Origin: an uncultured Gammaproteobacteria bacterium
Lineage (GTDB): Bacteria > Patescibacteriota > Patescibacteriia > Magasanikbacterales > UBA922
Direction of reading: 5' to 3'
Length of the DNA: 64,000 bases
Assembly: GCA_964519725.1 (NCBI GenBank)
Contig: CAZFKS010000004.1
Span: forward strand, 11,848-75,847
Shown: one piece after another, positions 1 to 54,965 of the stretch
How the letters are laid out: each line of letters begins with the position of its first letter
Numbering within the stretch: position 1 is the first letter of the stretch
Notes under the pieces: generated by a model
Seen by the model: the letters and a program-made list of their open reading frames with translations, nothing else
The model's database searches: none
Told to the model about the DNA's origin: nothing
Translations under genes and position numbers: made by a program

Positions 1-1198
1 TTGGTGTCAAAATTGCTGTGCCTTTTTTGGGAGTTAAAATATTTTTAATACCAGTTGTTTCTGATTCCGTTGGATTGCTCGCTACCTGCGCTCCGACTGG
101 AGTGAACACATTTTTAATCGCACTGTTAATGGCGATAAAATTTCCAGTTTTTGGGGCCAGCATAAATGCGCCACCATCTGAAAAATAATTTACTAAAAAG
201 CCATTTGGACTAGTGTCTAAGACCATGGAATTAACATTTTCTGTGCCAATACTTTTGCCTAGGCGAGCAAGTGAAACTAACTCACTAAATTCCATGTTAG
301 TGGTCAGGTGGCTTTCTAGGTCAGTTAAAATATTAGTCACAGTAATTGGATTGGCAATTACACCCACATCAGTAATTTGATCTTTGAGCGCAGTTAGGAT
401 TTTTTGTTGACGGCGAGCGCGCGCAAAATCTGAACCCTCACCATTGTTACCGTGACGTGAGCGGGCAAAAGTGAGCGCAGTCTTACCATCCAAAGTTTGT
501 TCACCAGCTTTAAAGGTAACGGTTTGATATTCACTATTTGGGGCTGGGAACATTGGGTCAGTAAAAGCTTGGTCAACGGTAACTTTCACACCGCCAAGTT
601 CGTCAATAATTTCTTCAAAGGCTTTGAAATCCAAGCGAATGTAATACGGAATATCAAGGTCAAAAGTTTTGGAAATTAATTCAGTCGCGGCTGCCCCACC
701 CCAATCTGGTTGCTTAAGTTCGCCGTAGGCATTCACGTGATTAATTTTTTGTTGACCATAACCAGGAATAGAAACGCCTAGGTCGCGCGGAATGGAAATG
801 AGCGCAATTTGTTTAGTGGATGGTTTGATGCTGGCAATCATGATGGTGTCAGTCAAATATGGACCGTCATGACCAGCGCCGCCCATACCCAGAAGGAGAA
901 CATTAATCCGGTCATCTTTGGCCCCAGCTAGGTCTGCACCAGTGTCGTCATGGTTAAACGCGAGTAAACTAATTTTTTTTAAAAGATTTTGTGGTTTTTT
1001 TGGTTCCAAAGTAACACGGCTGCGCACATCATCACCTGGACTACTTAAAACATGATTTAACCACAAGTAACCAAAAAGTAGCCCAAATCCAACCAAGGCT
1101 AACAATAAAAATAGCGCTGGGCGCCGGCGTTTAGGTTGGCTTTCGGGAGGAGCAGACTGAGAGGGAGAGGATGACTCTGAAGCGCTCGCACCGGTCAT
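1..1198 (-). CDS. LytR-CpsA-Psr (LCP) family cell-envelope protein, partial; the 3' end runs off the window start
   Basis: Minus-strand ORF starts at ATG 1198 and translates as MTGASASES...LLLGMGGAGHDGPYLTDTIMIASIKP, the LCP family signature. It has an N-terminal TM segment. It is absent from the ORF track because the stop lies outside the window. Confidence 0.65.
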   Translation of the reverse strand, partial: MTGASASESSSPSQSAPPESQPKRRRPALFLLLALVGFGLLFGYLWLNHVLSSPGDDVRSRVTLEPKKPQNLLKKISLLAFNHDDTGADLAGAKDDRINVLLLGMGGAGHDGPYLTDTIMIASIKPSTKQIALISIPRDLGVSIPGYGQQKINHVNAYGELKQPDWGGAAATELISKTFDLDIPYYIRLDFKAFEEIIDELGGVKVTVDQAFTDPMFPAPNSEYQTVTFKAGEQTLDGKTALTFARSRHGNNGEGSDFARARRQQKILTALKDQITDVGVIANPITVTNILTDLESHLTTNMEFSELVSLARLGKSIGTENVNSMVLDTSPNGFLVNYFSDGGAFMLAPKTGNFIAINSAIKNVFTPVGAQVASNPTESETTGIKNILTPKKGTAILTP

Positions 1199-1266
1199 AA
1201 AATTGATCGCGTTTGGTGCCATAGTTGTTCTTATTATAGCCAAAAATTCGGGTTTTGGCAATGGGC

Positions 1267-1294
1267 TTGATTTTCTATTTTTATTTGCTATGAT
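1267..1294 (+). promoter_or_regulatory. sigma70-like promoter (TTGATT, 16-nt spacer, TATGAT) driving a high-GC ORF
   Basis: The -35 element is at 1267-1272 and the -10 at 1289-1294. A GGAGG RBS at 1312-1316 sits 8 nt before ATG 1325. Confidence 0.4.
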
Positions 1295-1324
1295 AAGCGA
1301 TAATTTTGGGACGGAGGTAGCCCG

Positions 1325-1771
1325 ATGGACATGTTCCGGTTCAATCCGGGTTTGGCCGGTGTGTACGCACAGGTTGGCGTGATCGTCGAGGCTATGCACC
1401 TCCTGGCAGACGCAATTGCGACTGCGCCTGGTGGTTATAACCCGTACATCACGCTGCGACAGCAATTGGACAGCCGGAGGCGTTCCCTCAGAGAGCATGC
1501 TGAACACGTGACCGACCTCTTGAAGGTGGTCAGTCAGAGTTTTATGACCCTGCATTACCTGTTCGAGGGCGGTGAGCTGAGCGAAAGCCTCAGCTTCCAG
1601 TTGTCCTTCTGGCCGCTCTTTGATTGGGCCAGGAAGCACTTCCTCAACGAGGCTGGCTACGACACCAAGTGTGAGACCTTGCTCAACCAGATGGTTGAGA
1701 CCACGTTCAAGCTCAATGAAGTGTTGGTTCGGATCGAGGACGTGATCCGGTCGGAGAACATCCTGCAGTGA
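1325..1771 (+). CDS. hypothetical protein (148 aa) in a high-GC cassette, likely horizontally acquired
   Basis: ORF-track ORF. Its GC content and codon usage (ggc, cgc, ctc, gac) contrast sharply with the flanking AT-rich genes. It has its own promoter, RBS and terminator. No family recognised. Confidence 0.55.
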   Translation: MDMFRFNPGLAGVYAQVGVIVEAMHLLADAIATAPGGYNPYITLRQQLDSRRRSLREHAEHVTDLLKVVSQSFMTLHYLFEGGELSESLSFQLSFWPLFDWARKHFLNEAGYDTKCETLLNQMVETTFKLNEVLVRIEDVIRSENILQ

Positions 1772-1801
1772 CACATCAGACCAAAACGAAAGGAGGTGCA
1801 C

Positions 1802-1831
1802 AAAAAAAGATAGTCACGACTGTCTTTTTTT
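1802..1831 (+). terminator. rho-independent terminator
   Basis: A-tract, then hairpin gatagtc-acg-gactgtc (one U-G wobble), then a T7 run. Confidence 0.6.
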
Positions 1832-1883
1832 GTTATAATTTCTTTATATGCCGCAAATTATTGGAAAACCAGGAGTTGAAGTA

Positions 1884-2357
1884 ATGACTGGCAGTGTGCT
1901 GCACACTTGGCAAGTCACTGAATACGAACGTCATGATCGGCCAACCGCTTGGTACGTGGTTATGCTTATTGTTGGAGTGTTTTTGGTGGGTTATGGGCTC
2001 CTGACTAATAATTTTTTGTTTGCCCTGATTGTGGTTTTGTTTGCGATTATTATGTTTTTGCAATCGCACCAAGAACCACACCAAATTCCATTTACCATTA
2101 CTGATTTAGGGGTAATTATTAACAATCGGTTTTATCCGTATTCAGAAATTTCGGATTTTTATATTATTTATAATACAGAAGTAAAAATTTTATTTTTGGA
2201 GCCAGAAAGTAGCCTACGGCCCCGCATTCGCGTGAGCCTTATTGACCAGGATCCACTTGAGATTAAGTTCACTTTGCGCCAGTATTTAATGGAAAATACG
2301 AGCAAAGAAGAGGAGCCGTTTTCTGACCGGATTGCCCGGGAGTGGAAGCTTCATTGA
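1884..2357 (+). CDS. hypothetical membrane protein (two TM helices)
   Basis: ORF-track ORF 1848..2357. An in-frame ATG at 1884 has a better RBS (aggag, 8 nt). An extended -10 (TGtTATAAT, 1831-1839) lies just upstream. The hydrophobic stretch is WYVVMLIVGVFLVGYGLL...LFALIVVLFAIIMFL. Confidence 0.5.
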   Translation: MTGSVLHTWQVTEYERHDRPTAWYVVMLIVGVFLVGYGLLTNNFLFALIVVLFAIIMFLQSHQEPHQIPFTITDLGVIINNRFYPYSEISDFYIIYNTEVKILFLEPESSLRPRIRVSLIDQDPLEIKFTLRQYLMENTSKEEEPFSDRIAREWKLH

Positions 2358-2396
2358 CTTTTTCCGCGCGTTTGCTATACTGATGGGGCTAAATAA

Positions 2397-2471
2397 GCAC
2401 CCGTCGTTCAATGGATAGGACAAGAGTTTGCGGAACTCTAGATCTAAGTTCGATTCTTAGCGGGTGCACCA
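2397..2471 (+). tRNA. tRNA-Arg, anticodon GCG as read, with encoded CCA
   Basis: Hand-folded cloverleaf. Acceptor GCACCCG/CGGGTGC, D-loop AATGGATA, anticodon stem AGAGT/ACTCT, loop TTGCGGA, T-loop TTCGATT, discriminator A, CCA. The overall sequence closely resembles a canonical bacterial tRNA-Arg. Confidence 0.7.
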
Positions 2472-2527
2472 CTAGACTACCTTAAGAGGTGGTTTTTTGT
2501 TTCTTGGGGAAATGTTAAAATAAAAGC

Positions 2528-4561
2528 ATGCTCAAACTAGAAACTTCAGTTACTGAAATTAACCGAGTGGGGGAGACTTTGGCCGCGCGCCTGAAGCGCC
2601 TGGGAATTTTTACGGTGCGCGATCTTTTGTATTATTTTCCGTTTCGGTATGAAGATTTTTCACAGGTGAGTCAGATTCGGGGCCTACAGGCAAATCAATT
2701 GGTGACAATTGCGGTGCGAATTGAAATGATTGCGGCCAAGCGGAGTCCGCGTCGGCGTGCGCTTCTCACTGAAGCCGTGGTGTCAGACGCAAGTGACCGA
2801 TTAAAAGTGGTGTGGTTTAATCAGCCTTATATTGCCAAAACTTTGGCCGTTGGTGACCAGGTGTATTTGTCTGGCAAAGTGACCGTGGATCGATACGGGA
2901 TTTCTTTAGTCAATCCTAGTTATGAGCGGATTAAGCCAGATACAGTGCATACCGCGCGCGTGGTGCCGCTCTATCCACTGACTGATGGGGTGACGCAAAA
3001 ACAATTGCGGTATTTGCTGAGTGAGGTGATTGGTCTCGCGGCGGAAGTGCCAGAGTGGATTCCAGATGAAATTTTAAAACGAGTGGAATTAATTTCTTTG
3101 CCCGAAGCGCTTAAAGAAATTCATTTTCCAGTTAATCAAAAAAGTTTAGCCACTAGTTTAGCGCGGTTAAAATTTGATGAATTATTTTTACTGCAACTGC
3201 GCGCGGAAATGTTGCGGCAGCAATTGGCGCGGGTGAAAGCACCAGTGATTAAATTTTTGGCTGACAAAATTAAAAATTTTGTGGCTGGTTTACCATTTGA
3301 ATTAACCAAAGACCAGCGCGTGGCCGCCTGGGAAATTTTTCAGGATTTGGAAAAAAGCGAACCAATGAATCGGCTGCTGGAAGGTGACGTTGGGTCAGGA
3401 AAAACCGCGGTCGCGGCTATGGCCTTGTTTTTAGCCGCTGAAACTGGGCATCAAGCCGCGCTAATGGCGCCAACGGAAATTTTGGCGAACCAACATTTTG
3501 AAACACTCAGTAAATTTTTTGCAAATAATAATTTTTCAATTAAATTAGTAACGCACAGTAAAGTGGCGAAAAAAAGTGATCGGGAAAAATTATATGAAGA
3601 AATTAAAAGTGGGGAAATTAACATTGTGATTGGGACGCACGCGTTACTTTCTGAGGGTGTGGAATTTAAAAATTTAGGTCTAGTAATTGTAGATGAACAG
3701 CATCGGTTTGGGGTGGCACAGCGGCGATTAGTAAAAGAAAAATCTGGTTTAAAAAACGCGGAGCCGCATTTTTTAAGTATGACCGCGACCCCAATTCCGC
3801 GGTCACTGGCGCTCACTTTGTATGGGGATTTGGCCTTGTCGCAACTGCGCGAAAAACCAGCTGGCCGATTACCAATTAAAACACGGGTGGTGGCGCCACA
3901 CCAGCGCCAAAAGGCGTATGAATTTATTCGCGAGCAAGTAAAAAATGGGCGACAAGTATTTGTCATTTGTCCAACCATTAATGCTGATGAAAAAAAGTCA
4001 GTGACCGTTGAGTATGAACATTTGGCCAATGATGTGTTTAAAGAATTACGGGTCGGATTTTTACATGGCAAAATGAAAGCAGTGGAAAAAGACGCAGCTA
4101 TGACCGCGTTTGCTAGTGGTGCAATTGATATTTTGGTAGCCACGTCAGTGGTAGAAGTAGGGGTGAATATTCCAAACGCCACCGTAATGATGATTGAGGG
4201 TGCTGAAGCGTTTGGACTTGCTCAATTACACCAATTCCGTGGACGGGTGGGTCGGAGTGATTGGCAATCATATTGTTTTTTATTTACTGATTCAGATTCT
4301 GAAAAAGCGAATCAACGTTTGGCATTTTTTGAAAAAACTACGGATGGTTTTGAATTGGCTGAATTTGATTTGGAAACGCGCGGACCAGGTGAAGTGTATG
4401 GCACGGTCCAAAGTGGGCTCATGCAATTAAAATTAGCGACTCTCCAGGACACTGATTTGATTAAAAAAGCGCGCGCGGCAGCCCGGGGGATTGATTTTAA
4501 AAAATATCCAGATTTGAAAAAAGCCGCGGCCAAGTGGGAAGCAGAAACGCACCGTGAATAA
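2528..4561 (+). CDS. recG: ATP-dependent DNA helicase RecG
   Basis: Walker A motif GDVGSGKT, DEQH box (VIVDEQHRFGV), helicase C-terminal motifs, and a RecG-type wedge domain at the N-terminus. Confidence 0.9.
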   Translation: MLKLETSVTEINRVGETLAARLKRLGIFTVRDLLYYFPFRYEDFSQVSQIRGLQANQLVTIAVRIEMIAAKRSPRRRALLTEAVVSDASDRLKVVWFNQPYIAKTLAVGDQVYLSGKVTVDRYGISLVNPSYERIKPDTVHTARVVPLYPLTDGVTQKQLRYLLSEVIGLAAEVPEWIPDEILKRVELISLPEALKEIHFPVNQKSLATSLARLKFDELFLLQLRAEMLRQQLARVKAPVIKFLADKIKNFVAGLPFELTKDQRVAAWEIFQDLEKSEPMNRLLEGDVGSGKTAVAAMALFLAAETGHQAALMAPTEILANQHFETLSKFFANNNFSIKLVTHSKVAKKSDREKLYEEIKSGEINIVIGTHALLSEGVEFKNLGLVIVDEQHRFGVAQRRLVKEKSGLKNAEPHFLSMTATPIPRSLALTLYGDLALSQLREKPAGRLPIKTRVVAPHQRQKAYEFIREQVKNGRQVFVICPTINADEKKSVTVEYEHLANDVFKELRVGFLHGKMKAVEKDAAMTAFASGAIDILVATSVVEVGVNIPNATVMMIEGAEAFGLAQLHQFRGRVGRSDWQSYCFLFTDSDSEKANQRLAFFEKTTDGFELAEFDLETRGPGEVYGTVQSGLMQLKLATLQDTDLIKKARAAARGIDFKKYPDLKKAAAKWEAETHRE

Positions 4562-4595
4562 AAAAGGGAAAACACTGATCAATCAAGTTCAAAGC

Positions 4596-4624
4596 TTGAC
4601 TTTTTTAATGTTTAATTGTATTTT
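4596..4624 (+). promoter_or_regulatory. promoter candidate (TTGACT, 17-nt spacer, TATTTT) for high-GC transcript 1
   Basis: It shares the 'cttgactttttt' -35 context with the promoters at 4975 and 33085 (minus strand). Confidence 0.35.
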
Positions 4625-4631
4625 CTTCATT

Positions 4632-4971
4632 AATTGGGCGACGATGCCCTAGAGGGAGAGAGCCGTGTGGATGATGGTCAACGTAAGCGGCAAGGTTAAG
4701 GAAGTCTGGATCTCCGAGGAAACAAAGGAGAAGCTAACCAGGCCCATCAAAGCTGATGGTCTACACCTGATTGGTTCTAGCTCTGGCGGAGGGCGTGTTC
4801 CTCCGCACGCACCGCGCCGTTAGCGACCACGAGAGTGTCGCGGTCCCGCTAGGGATTCCACGCTGGTCGAGGCTTATCGCCTCCCAGCCTGCCCTCCAAG
4901 AGCGGCCGACTGCTCGTGGAAGGCAGTCAAATCATAAATAAAAGCCTCTGACTAAATGTCAGAGGCTTTTT
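4632..4971 (+). ncRNA. candidate structured RNA, about 340 nt and high-GC, family unknown; may instead carry a 50-aa ORF at 4671..4823
   Basis: Promoter upstream. Dense GC hairpins include gggc-gacgat-gccc, gcggagg-gcgtgtt-cctccgc and gcgac-cacgagagt-gtcgc. No ORF of 60 aa or more in any frame. It ends at the intrinsic terminator 4941-4971 (gcctctgac-taaat-gtcagaggc followed by T5). A small ORF MMVNVSGKVKEVWISEETKEK... begins at 4671 with an upstream AGGGAGAG. Confidence 0.35.
4941..4971. terminator. bidirectional intrinsic terminator
   Basis: A 9-bp GC stem with A-tract on one side and T-tract on the other. The stem sequence gcctctgac/gtcagaggc recurs elsewhere in the window. Confidence 0.6.
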
Positions 4972-4974
4972 AAC

Positions 4975-5003
4975 TTGACTTTTTTGGTTTTGGGTGATTT
5001 AAT
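4975..5003 (+). promoter_or_regulatory. promoter (TTGACT, 17-nt spacer, TTTAAT) for high-GC transcript 2
   Basis: -35 at 4975-4980 and -10 at 4998-5003. It lies immediately downstream of the terminator. Confidence 0.4.
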
Positions 5004-5007
5004 CGCG

Positions 5008-5400
5008 CCTACGCCCAGCGGACTAGCTACCCGCAAGACATGGGCGCGAGGAGATCTCCATGAGTGAAGATGGCGGCGTTAAGCCGACCAAGCCCGGGGT
5101 GATTCGTCCCGGAAACCCCCCGAAAGGGGGCGAAGACGACTCGGGACCGACCACGGTCCCGGAGACGCCGAGATCACGGCGTCGAGTGCCTCGGTCCCTA
5201 CGCACGCCGGGCAGTGACTACGTGCGCGCCCCTGGCCTGACAGAGGGCGAGCCGTAAAGGGTGACACTGTCGCCACCCCGCCAAACTGCGGGGGCAGATT
5301 CCGCTTGATTCGCTCGCAAGAGTTCGAGTCAACAACACTCTCGGCCGCAGCGGAAGCGGCCAAATCCAAAATTAAAAAAAGCCCCGTGGTGGGGCTTTTT
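5008..5400 (+). ncRNA. candidate structured RNA, about 390 nt and high-GC, family unknown; contains a possible 65-aa Pro/Gly/Arg-rich ORF at 5060..5257
   Basis: A chain of independent GC hairpins: cccccgaaaggggg, gggaccg-acca-cggtccc, gacgccg-agatca-cggcgtc, cgcacg...cgtgcg, gggtg...caccc, ggccgc-agcggaa-gcggcc. It ends at terminator 5374-5400 (gcccc-gtggt-ggggc followed by T5). The internal ORF has GAGGAG 6 nt upstream of its ATG, but the peptide is low-complexity. Confidence 0.35.
5374..5400. terminator. bidirectional intrinsic terminator, also serving radA on the minus strand
   Basis: A7 tract, then gccccgtggtggggc, then T5. Confidence 0.6.
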
Positions 5401-5412
5401 AAATTAAACTTT

Positions 5413-32510: not shown

Positions 32511-32559
32511 TTTGGAAGTAAAAGTGGCAGGGAGTTTTGTTATTTATAAAACAAAAAAC

Positions 32560-32610
32560 AGCCATGAATGACTGTCTTTTGTTGCGCCTCTGATTCGTCA
32601 GAGGCAGCGT
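32560..32610 (-). terminator. tandem-hairpin terminator module at the 3' flank of a high-GC gene
   Basis: On the minus strand: gcctctga-cgaa-tcagaggc, then gacagtcattcatggctgtc, then T6. It is homologous to the 3' flank at 33090-33162. Confidence 0.5.
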
Positions 32611-32663
32611 CCCAGAACTCGGCGCGGCGTCATGCGGGTTCAATGGGAAGCGCCAGGACGGCG

Positions 32664-33069: not shown

Positions 33070-33100
33070 CAATAAAAAAGTCAAGGTACAAAATGAAAAA
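33070..33100 (-). promoter_or_regulatory. promoter candidate (cTTGACTTTTTT context) for gene 32664..33065
   Basis: The minus-strand sequence reads ccttgacttttttattgttttatgctaagttt. It is the same -35 module as at 4596 and 4975. Confidence 0.3.
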
Positions 33101-33162
33101 ACAGCCACCTAAGTGACTGTTTTTTCATTGGGCCCCTGACACGTCAGAGGCAGCGTCCTGGA
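33090..33162 (-). terminator. terminator module at the 3' flank of gene 33225..33773
   Basis: Shares the 16-mer gtcagaggcagcgtcc and the A-tract/acagcc...gactgt/T-tract hairpin with 32560-32610. Confidence 0.45.
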
Positions 33163-33224
33163 TCTCGGCGCCGATTGCTCGGCACCAAGCTCAGACAGGA
33201 GTGATCCGGAGAGGATCACGTTGC

Positions 33225-33828: not shown

Positions 33829-33919
33829 GAGGATAACTTGATAAAATCCCTTAAATTAGCCAAAAAAATTAAAAAACCACGGCTATTAACCGGGTTTTGT
33901 CGACGATTTCCGTCATTTG

Positions 33920-33991
33920 TAGCGCCAAGGGGAATTGAACCCCTGTTCTCAGGTTGAAAACCTGATGTCCTAACCATTAGACGATGGCGCC
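33920..33991 (-). tRNA. tRNA-Glu (anticodon TTC)
   Basis: Hand-folded. Acceptor GGCGCCA/TGGCGCT, D-loop AATGGTTA, anticodon stem TCAGG/CCTGA, loop TTTTCAA, T-loop TTCAATT. No CCA encoded. Confidence 0.75.
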
Positions 33992-54066: not shown

Positions 54067-54139
54067 GCTGCTGTAGCTCAGTTGGTAGAGCGCGTCCATG
54101 GTAAGGACGAGGTCACCAGTTCAATCCTGGTCAGTAGCT
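54067..54139 (+). tRNA. tRNA-Thr (anticodon GGT), the integration target of the downstream islet
   Basis: Hand-folded. Acceptor GCTGCTG/CAGTAGC with one G-U pair, anticodon stem CGTCC/GGACG, loop ATGGTAA, T-loop TTCAATC. Confidence 0.75.
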
Positions 54140-54144
54140 CTAGT
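54106..54144 (+). repeat. attL-like 39-bp direct repeat (3' half of tRNA-Thr(GGT) plus 5 nt)
   Basis: gacgaggtcaccagttcaatcctggtcagtagctctagt is identical to 54927..54965. Confidence 0.85.
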
Positions 54145-54217
54145 TGGCGCCCGAGAGGGTGTTTTTTATTTTAATAAAAAACCAGAGAGTAAGTTTTGGT
54201 TGTTTTGTGAAATATCC

Positions 54218-54246
54218 TTGACAAAGATCCATTTTTGCTTTAGAAT
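54218..54246 (+). promoter_or_regulatory. consensus sigma70 promoter (TTGACA, 17-nt spacer, TAGAAT)
   Basis: -35 at 54218-54223 and -10 at 54241-54246. An AGGAGG RBS at 54343-54348 sits 8 nt before GTG 54357. Confidence 0.5.
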
Positions 54247-54356
54247 CCATTGTTAATTTGTCTATGGTAACAGGTAGGTCTCTGGCCTTTCTATTACCCT
54301 CGGCAATCATAAGTCTGCGCCTTGGGGGCTGAAAAGCTGCAGCAGGAGGAACTCCC

Positions 54357-54686
54357 GTGATCAACTGTCTGGTGACTTCCAAGGTTTCGCTGACCGATGA
54401 CATGCGGTACACCCTGTACCGCACCGCGTTCGAGATGTACATGAACAAGGTCGCGGAGCGCAAGGTGCGCACGCCGGGCTTCAGGGCCACGATCAAGACG
54501 GATGGCGAGCATGGGGTCATGGGTACGATCGCCGGTATCGTGTTCTCGGCCACGGTCGACACCGACCGCGGCGAAGGACTCGTGACCTACATCGTCCGGG
54601 GGCGCGATCTGTGCCAGCCCGAAGACGGTGTCTGGATCCCACTGCCCCGCGACTTCGCGCCCGTCGCCGACTACAACGTGCAGTGA
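54357..54686 (+). CDS. hypothetical protein (109 aa), high-GC, cargo of the tRNA-Thr islet
   Basis: GTG start with a perfect SD. About 65% GC. No recognisable family (MINCLVTSKVSLTDDMRYTLYRTAFEMYMNKVAERK...). Confidence 0.5.
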   Translation: MINCLVTSKVSLTDDMRYTLYRTAFEMYMNKVAERKVRTPGFRATIKTDGEHGVMGTIAGIVFSATVDTDRGEGLVTYIVRGRDLCQPEDGVWIPLPRDFAPVADYNVQ

Positions 54687-54772
54687 CCCCTCGAGGGACG
54701 GGGTCACCTCTTCCAGTGTGTCACCGCAAGGCACTGGTGGGAGTCCAAGGTTGTTCAACTTGCGGTCCCATC

Positions 54773-54800
54773 AAAAACAGCTTTGCCAAAGGCTGTTTTT
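54773..54800 (+). terminator. intrinsic terminator of the islet gene
   Basis: aaaacagctttgccaaaggctgttttt. It has the same A-tract/acagc...gctgt/T-tract style as the terminators at 32560 and 33093. Confidence 0.55.
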
Positions 54801-54926
54801 GTTTTAATAAAGTGAAATTTACTCATTTCCATATAGATGGAAATAGAGAATAAACCAAGTTTTATTAAAAACAAGGTTGTTGCAGGTTCTGCCATTCAGG
54901 GTTTTTAACTGAGTAAAAAGTAGAAA

Positions 54927-54965
54927 GACGAGGTCACCAGTTCAATCCTGGTCAGTAGCTCTAGT
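54927..54965 (+). repeat. attR-like 39-bp direct repeat (partial tRNA-Thr 3' end)
   Basis: Identical to 54106..54144. It is followed by the hairpin aaaccgcc-atct-ggtggttt + T7, the likely original tRNA terminator. Confidence 0.85.

Follow-up and report, generated by a model that had tools for sequence, protein, structure and literature searches.

The 64,000-nt stretch analysed here (contig CAZFKS010000004.1; referred to below as the window), which belongs to a Candidatus Magasanikbacteria genome, contains, between a gene of the LCP family and a gene for a membrane protein with two transmembrane (TM) segments, a GC-rich open reading frame (ORF) for a 148-aa protein, with a promoter and a ribosome-binding site in front of it and a terminator behind it. 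The origin of this ORF, of the signals around it and of the spacer that holds it is the subject of this analysis. The features of the locus are as follows:

1222-1220 (start codon), minus strand: LCP gene, with the LytR_cpsA_psr domain (Pfam PF03816, E 1.6e-41)
1233-1261, minus strand: promoter of the LCP gene, TTGCCA-17-TATAAT, 11/12, back-to-back with the plus-strand promoter
1267-1294, plus strand: sigma-70-type promoter recognised from the sequence, TTGATT (1267-1272), 16 nt, TATGAT (1289-1294)
1299-1790, plus strand: GC-rich segment of about 492 bp, foreign as judged from blastn breakpoints and GC content
1313-1317, plus strand: Shine-Dalgarno (SD) sequence GGAGG, 7 nt 5' of ATG 1325
1325-1771, plus strand: ORF of 148 aa, ATG start, TGA stop
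1791-1801, plus strand: right conserved flank from the blastn breakpoint on, its first bases being AGGAGGTGCAC
1800-1833, plus strand: intrinsic, bidirectional-looking terminator (hairpin and T-run), from folding and from relatives
1831-1839, plus strand: extended -10 box TGtTATAAT of the membrane-protein gene, conserved in the relatives L088, L089, L093 and L096 (see below)
1848-2357, plus strand: gene for the two-TM membrane protein, 169 aa, of native composition, with the start MPQII kept in relatives

Much of this arrangement had already been recognised in the initial annotation: the TTGATT-16-TATGAT promoter is present, the ORF lies between an LCP-family gene and a membrane-protein gene of native composition, and a terminator follows. 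This terminator is a strong one, with arms of 16 nt each (1800-1815 and 1818-1833) followed by the T-run, and a folding energy of -20.9 kcal/mol (z=-5.2) that 0/200 shuffled sequences equalled. Two of its values require correction, namely the GC content of the ORF, which is 55.7% rather than about 60%, and the distance between GGAGG and the start codon, which had been given as 8 nt. The start of the membrane-protein gene is placed at ATG 1848 and not at 1884 because MPQII is conserved among the relatives.

The ORF is a strong compositional outlier and, by its composition, foreign. The GC content of the window is 43.8%, and that of 50 native window genes used as the reference is 0.429±0.025, with a GC content at third codon positions (GC3) of 0.381±0.051 (range 0.27-0.49). 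The ORF peaks at 0.57-0.59 GC in windows of 100 nt, and GC1/2/3 in it are 0.56/0.35/0.76; relative to the 50 native genes, this corresponds to z=+5.1 for GC and z=+7.4 for GC3. The foreign codon usage noted at the outset is evident as well, with z=-8.8 on an index similar to the codon adaptation index that was trained on the native genes of the window.

The ORF is also a real gene on the plus strand, because the plus-strand product has homologues by BLASTP, phmmer and profile search and gives a confident AlphaFold2 model. Remote homology and structure prediction, to which the initial annotation had deferred the question of function, yielded a tiny family and an all-alpha bundle. An exhaustive phmmer search of 1.84 billion representative proteins retrieved one real relative, P0001 (165 aa; E 4.7e-5), which matches the 148-aa protein with 30% identity in pairwise BLASTP (2e-14), and the profile built from these two sequences adds P0003 and P0004 (146 aa) at about 1e-19. 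One more member is encoded by an ORF at the same locus in the relative L096. It is 24-28% identical to the 148-aa protein (BLASTP, 2e-12) and nearer to the homologues from high-GC contigs (37-41% identity, 2e-24). The family thus comprises six known sequences (the window ORF, the L096 ORF, P0001, P0003, P0004 and L087, which is the P0001 contig), so that two members from the candidate phyla radiation (CPR) are added to a family known from three other clusters. The proteins, of 146-165 aa, align end-to-end and share the motif L.FW..[FY][DE]W as well as invariant Arg and Glu positions. The invariant residues (T33, L44, R56, L66, F73, L76, F80, F95, W96, W101, E109, L119 and E125) are mainly hydrophobic or aromatic, with one Arg and two Glu, and include no conserved catalytic signature.

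The family is rare in all collections searched. A word-indexed search with the 148-aa query alone found nothing, tblastn of the family gave zero matches in phage and plasmid records and did not find it in 80 Patescibacteria loci, and the family profile detected nothing in IMG/VR and only the P0001 contig in the JGI metagenomes. P0001 and P0003 sit on contigs of 69-70% GC, and P0004 has been seen on a 550-bp contig only. The high-GC homologues match the composition of their contigs (69.5% vs 69.1% and 72.6% vs 70.0%), and no tRNA or mobile-element context was found around them.

The AlphaFold2 model (predicted local distance difference test 83.5, predicted template-modelling score 0.78) is all-alpha; its long helices span 8-32, 53-81 and 116-147, and the FW..DW motif lies on a helical hairpin. 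With a pI of 5.3 and without a convincing TM segment, the acidic product is predicted to be a soluble cytoplasmic helical bundle. Assignment to the HEPN proteins was considered and rejected. The stretches RSLREH and REHAEH (R53..H58, R56..H61) match Rx4-6H, but of these residues the family keeps the Arg R56 alone as an invariant one, the His being variable; the Foldseek match to the HEPN structure 7ae8 has E=1.4, and Pfam gives no match. A binding or adaptor role (similar to immunity proteins, antitoxins or anti-defence proteins), of the sort that cargo of hotspots typically has, rather than an enzymatic one is a tentative suggestion, and a doubtful one; it is prompted by the lack of conserved catalytic residues and by the toxin-antitoxin pair found in the same slot of a relative.

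Comparison of the spacer between the LCP gene and the membrane-protein gene was based on contigs with homologues of the membrane protein at graded distance that are named Magasanikbacteria and on two GTDB genomes, which gives nine comparison lineages. The contents of the spacer, in order of membrane-protein identity, are the following:

L088, identity 85%: slot empty
L096, identity 80%: 150-aa ORF of the same family as the 148-aa protein
L089-91, identity 77%: slot empty
L097, identity 76%: tRNA-Val(cac)
L092/93, identity 70%: unrelated 150-aa ORFan and a Gp49/HTH_3 (HigBA-like) pair, AT-rich
L094/95, identity 69%: tRNA-Val(cac)
L007 and L008, identity about 45%: tRNA-Val(cac)

On the left of the spacer, all relatives share the anchor GGTTTTGGCAA(T)GGG, which holds the -35 box of the LCP gene on the opposite strand and is conserved in L088, L089, L093, L096 and L097. 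On the right, most relatives have a TG-extended -10 box (of the TGGTATACT/TGtTATAAT type), and the start of the membrane-protein gene, ATGCC.CAA (MPQ..), is present in all relatives compared. Judging from these gene orders, the spacer is a hypervariable slot for accessory genes, a turnover hotspot in Candidatus Magasanikbacteria, whose ancestral content, by the same comparison, is tRNA-Val(CAC) with its own promoter. The initial annotation proposed examining synteny and named, as an outcome that would refute its reading, the occurrence of this gene, native-like in composition, throughout a broad set of relatives. The ORF is absent from most relatives, and the only member at this locus elsewhere is the L096 ORF, which is GC-rich too (55.2%, GC3 0.63; the membrane-protein gene on the same contig has 41.5%). 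The empty sites in L088 and L089 most likely represent secondary deletions, because a degraded hairpin, T-run and -10 box remain while the promoter is gone; specifically, these sites keep (A/T)GATAG and the T-run.

Some of the slots in relatives have features of their own. In L092/L093 (1590-3000; GCA_001784325.1), TTGACA promoter-like boxes precede both the ORFan and the pair of Gp49 (HigB-like) and HTH_3 (HigA-like) genes, a terminator-like hairpin and T-run follow the ORFan, and all are AT-rich, with a native-like composition. In L097, about 330 nt of extra AT-rich DNA (3664-4000) separate the tRNA terminator from the membrane-protein gene; this DNA carries inverted copies of cattctggc/gccagaatg and may be a small repeat element.

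Alignment with the relatives separates native from foreign parts of the locus at the level of single bases. In a blastn comparison of the window with L096, the breakpoints fall at 1298/1299 and 1790/1791; identity is about 76% in either flank, and the segments in between (1299-1790 in the window, 221-765 in L096) have zero nucleotide similarity. The GC content changes accordingly, from 0.27 in 1266-1310 to 0.557 in 1311-1800 and back to 0.29 in 1801-1835. The promoter motif taken alone is at chance level (4 promoter-like sites vs 2.3±1.5 expected in shuffled sequences); it includes an extended -10 TG at 1286-1287 (TGcTATGAT). Right after the anchor, the promoter GGGCTTGATTTT...TGCTATGAT aligns with the tRNA-Val promoter of L007, L008 and L097, and it is also present in L096. 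By this alignment, the promoter at 1267-1294 is orthologous to the tRNA-Val(CAC) promoter of the relatives and hence native. Conservation in L096 is about 90% for the hairpin, the T-run and the next -10 box, which are degraded yet recognisable in L088 and L089; the terminator at 1800-1833 is thereby identified, too, as native to the site. The GC-rich segment begins about 5 nt past the native -10 box and carries an SD sequence and no promoter. Thus, because the promoter and the terminator are shared with relatives and because of the breakpoints and the GC content, the foreign DNA is limited to about 490 bp, that is, the SD sequence, the ORF and a short 3' untranslated region (UTR). An SD function of the 3' motif AAAGGAGGTGCAC for a downstream gene of the donor was considered and discarded, the loci of the high-GC homologues being without the same motif.

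We therefore consider it likely that a promoterless foreign gene was captured into the native tRNA-Val transcription unit of a hypervariable slot. In such a capture, the body of tRNA-Val(CAC) would have been replaced by about 490 bp of GC-rich DNA (about 1299-1790) that brought a complete 148-aa gene with its own SD sequence and no promoter. From the anatomy of the locus, transcription would start near 1301 from the former tRNA-Val promoter and end at the native hairpin and T-run (1825-1833). The resulting mRNA would be monocistronic and about 530 nt long, and in front of the ORF it would have about 24 nt of 5' UTR and a strong SD sequence. The membrane-protein gene would then be read from its own extended -10 promoter (1831-1839), which overlaps the end of the terminator. 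A bacterium of high GC content is the probable donor, because the family members other than that of L096 sit on contigs of 69-70% GC and have a composition native to them.

Several observations weigh against this reading. The window and L096 have alleles that share the same breakpoints, that reach no more than 24-28% identity and that have both remained GC-rich. One old capture is unlikely to fit, because the GC3 excess should not have survived divergence of this extent; two captures at the same breakpoints, on the other hand, would need a site-specific or flank-guided mechanism, and none was found. Pfam detects no recombinase or integrase in 20 window ORFs, including all neighbours, and flanking direct repeats are missing at the window slot, where no left-hand copy of the tRNA 3' end was found. 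The 7 nt GTGCACA at 1795-1801 are the same as those that end tRNA-Val in L097, but 119/2000 shuffled sequences score at least as well, so 1791-1801 may be a remnant of the tRNA 3' end, though it is not significant alone. No candidate for the donor taxon emerged from the literature. Searches for function gave no specific match either: Foldseek searches of PDB and BFVD return generic up-down helical bundles only (E>0.03), Pfam, NCBIfam, PADLOC and PHROGs give nothing for the 148-aa protein and its homologues, and a sequence-profile search of PDB gives only weak matches of the coiled-coil type (spike heptad-repeat) with E>=0.045. Apart from these points, no remnant of the tRNA-Val 5' end was found at the window slot, searches for target-site duplications and terminal inverted repeats around the insert returned low-complexity A/T matches only, and the 148-aa ORF itself contains no recombinase domain.

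Among the alternatives, the one put forward in the initial annotation holds that the whole block of promoter, ribosome-binding site, ORF and terminator (about 1262-1835) was imported as an autonomous cassette. The architecture does fit the published definition of phage morons, which have their own promoter and terminator and a deviant GC content and lie between genes that are adjacent in relatives (PMC2920897): here, too, one ORF with a GC content unlike that of its neighbours is placed between a promoter and an intrinsic terminator and interrupts genes adjacent in relatives. Compared with L088, moreover, 1266-1825 (560 nt) looks like an insertion in place of a 29-nt spacer, and insertion of this entire block was entertained until the orthology of the tRNA-Val promoter was seen. 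With orthologous promoters at the same position in L007, L008 and L097, import of the block appears largely refuted, and we regard it as quite improbable: the hairpin and T-run are common to L096 and, in part, to L088, the AT-rich ends, with GC 0.27 and 0.29, have the composition of native DNA, and L088 and L089, which lack the promoter, look like secondary deletions. Unlike a moron, the unit lies outside any phage or prophage. The surrounding genes are housekeeping ones, with LCP, RecG and RadA as neighbours in the window and Der, Pth, DprA and FolC upstream of LCP in L088/L089, and the phage, plasmid and IMG/VR collections contain zero matches to the family. Hence the part of the stand-alone cassette that is foreign shrinks to about 1299-1790. 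It is also unlikely, in our estimation, that the tRNA slot is a fixed expression site at which GC-rich promoterless cassettes of one rare family, possibly from high-GC neighbours or hosts of episymbiotic bacteria, are captured or exchanged repeatedly at defined breakpoints, or that it holds a fast-evolving conflict gene under diversifying selection. Slightly less probable still is the stricter version, a dedicated site where promoterless cassettes of the family are captured or swapped by a site-specific or flank-guided process, as in an integron platform or an allelic cassette-exchange locus. Such a site would account for the hyper-divergent (24-28%) GC-rich members that the window and L096 hold between the same breakpoints, promoter and terminator, for the two copies of GGAG(G)YGCAC that bracket 26 nt at the 3' junction in L096, and for the L096 protein, which resembles the high-GC homologues (37-41%) more closely than it does the protein of the window. 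As in integron cassettes, a promoterless foreign ORF with its own SD sequence lies behind a resident promoter from which its expression is predicted, and two genomes have differing alleles at the same position. Unlike in integrons, the slot contains a single cassette and no array; no recombinase, and in particular no integron integrase, is found among the window ORFs examined; apart from the A/T-flanked terminator hairpin, 1772-1850 contains no significant inverted repeat and none of the attC type; no GTTRRRY core is visible at the junctions, and no attI site was found. Furthermore, only two such loci are known, the cargo of L092/93 is unrelated and has promoter-like and terminator-like sequences of its own, and a long branch after a single capture might explain the two alleles as well. 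If a fixed site did exist, it would represent an unrecognised system of cassette capture or diversification.

Two other explanations were considered. An old native gene of the clade, lost in most relatives and GC-rich because of constraint, would be compatible with the family member at the same locus in L096 and with the deletion-like empty sites in L088/L089; we deem it very unlikely, given that GC3 and codon usage are 7-9 standard deviations off those of native genes, that the more distant relatives carry tRNA-Val in the slot, that the other family members are native in composition to contigs of 69-70% GC, and that the family is absent from the 80 Patescibacteria loci searched. Hardly credible is the notion that there is no separate gene at all, the stretch being a minus-strand N-terminal extension of LCP, a non-coding sequence or an assembly chimera. 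On the minus strand, a frame runs without a stop from 1801 into the LCP gene, and the automatic annotation of the Logan contig L001 (run SRR11567520) accordingly calls, at 3-1532 (window 272-1801, minus strand), a 510-aa product in which LCP is fused with the GC-rich ORF read in antisense. Opposite a GC3-rich ORF, however, an open frame is to be expected, and the GC1 of 0.76 on the minus strand is not gene-like. The 193-aa extension has no homologue in relatives, where the orthologous LCP proteins begin, like the product of ATG 1222, with a short N-terminus and then a hydrophobic, presumed TM segment; the LCP promoter is directly upstream of 1222, and a GTG start at 1801 would fall inside the terminator hairpin. 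It is the plus-strand product that has homologues. A chimera is contradicted by L001 itself, which was assembled separately and is 100% identical to window 270-5408, both junctions included. The fused gene call is, from all this, wrong, and protein collections therefore lack the real 148-aa protein; protein searches also failed to retrieve the call of 146 aa made on the L096 contig.

Among known systems, capture of a promoterless gene is best filed as cargo of a tRNA-locus hotspot acquired by horizontal transfer, with replacement of the tRNA and co-option of its promoter. The resemblance to tRNA-locus hotspots and islets consists in the variable content between conserved core genes, the atypical composition, the tRNA-Val(CAC) present in the slot in four lineages and the toxin-antitoxin cargo in the same slot of L092/93. 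In contrast to these, the tRNA in the window is replaced rather than flanked, there is no integrase and no convincing att repeat, and the cargo is a single 148-aa gene that would re-use the promoter of the tRNA. With generic helical bundles, the product shares the predicted fold of three long helices and a helical hairpin, and Foldseek template-modelling scores reach 0.44-0.61 to chemoreceptor ligand-binding domains, HEPN and designed bundles, but no match falls below E 0.03.

The case is an instructive yet fairly ordinary horizontal gene capture. Its interest lies in the base-level resolution with which uptake of a foreign gene can be followed in CPR/Patescibacteria, whose genomes are tiny and whose ways of acquiring and expressing foreign genes are little known. 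The foreign ORF would have displaced a tRNA gene that was presumably dispensable and taken over its strong promoter and the native terminator, at a slot that turns over quickly among close relatives, from a tRNA to a toxin-antitoxin pair, an ORFan or nothing. The high-GC contigs of the homologues are a hint that a putative episymbiont receives genes from bacteria of high GC content. What looks like a cassette complete with promoter and terminator can be deceptive, because capture into a transcription unit that is already in place gives the same picture. Automatic gene calling wrongly annotates inserts of this kind as extensions, in antisense, of the gene next to them.

The initial annotation compared the locus with cassettes at 31.8-33.8 kb and 54.3 kb and suggested a common mechanism of acquisition. 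The likeness holds in that these sites, too, contain GC-rich ORFs with near-consensus promoters, and all three sites are linked to tRNA genes; one shared mechanism is not borne out, as att-like tRNA repeats exist at the 54-kb islet only. This islet of 821 bp (54103-54965) lies between 42-nt direct repeats of the 3' end of tRNA-Thr(GGT) (54103-54144 and 54924-54965), a classic att signature. Its contents are a promoter close to consensus (about 54219-54247) and a GC-rich ORF for 109 aa (54357-54686, GC3 0.86), without an integrase, so that the islet has the appearance of a tRNA-integrated element that has decayed or is cis-mobilisable. The 31.8-33.8 kb cluster adjoins tRNA-Glu (33919-33991) and has promoters that score 11-12/12. 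A common 3' module of about 75 nt (32548-32625 and 33091-33171) lies behind each of its two GC-rich ORFs on the minus strand (32664-about 33002 and 33225-about 33683); it consists of a GC-rich part with the hairpin GCCYCTGA..GTCAGAGGC (82% identical over 49 nt) and an A/T-flanked terminator. Three other GC-rich cassette proteins have no close relatives in IMG/VR. The tRNA linkage of all three protein-coding GC-rich sites lends only loose support to a shared route.

Several minor observations concern the signals flanking the ORF. The -10 box TATAAT of the membrane-protein gene (1834-1839) ends 8 nt before ATG 1848, so that the mRNA may be leaderless or nearly so; the LCP gene is arranged likewise, with a -10 box ending 10 nt before ATG 1222. 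An anti-SD-like sequence inside the ORF, TGCACCTCCT (1395-1404), is perfectly complementary over 10 nt to the SD-like 3' flank AGGAGGTGCA (1791-1800), which is probably due to chance (about 0.1 for this length in about 500 nt, as a rough estimate). The hairpin motif GCCYCTGA..GTCAGAGGC of the 3' modules occurs once more at 4944-4966. The surrounding region, 4640-5400, between the convergent RecG and RadA genes, includes two GC-rich stretches (up to 69% GC) without codon periodicity, each with a TTGACT-type promoter-like site and a terminator; neither matches Rfam at the gathering or E-value threshold. The RecG-RadA intergenic region of L008 and the region just downstream of RecG in L012 are GC-rich as well, without sequence similarity. 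These stretches of the window could be structured RNAs or another insertion hotspot.

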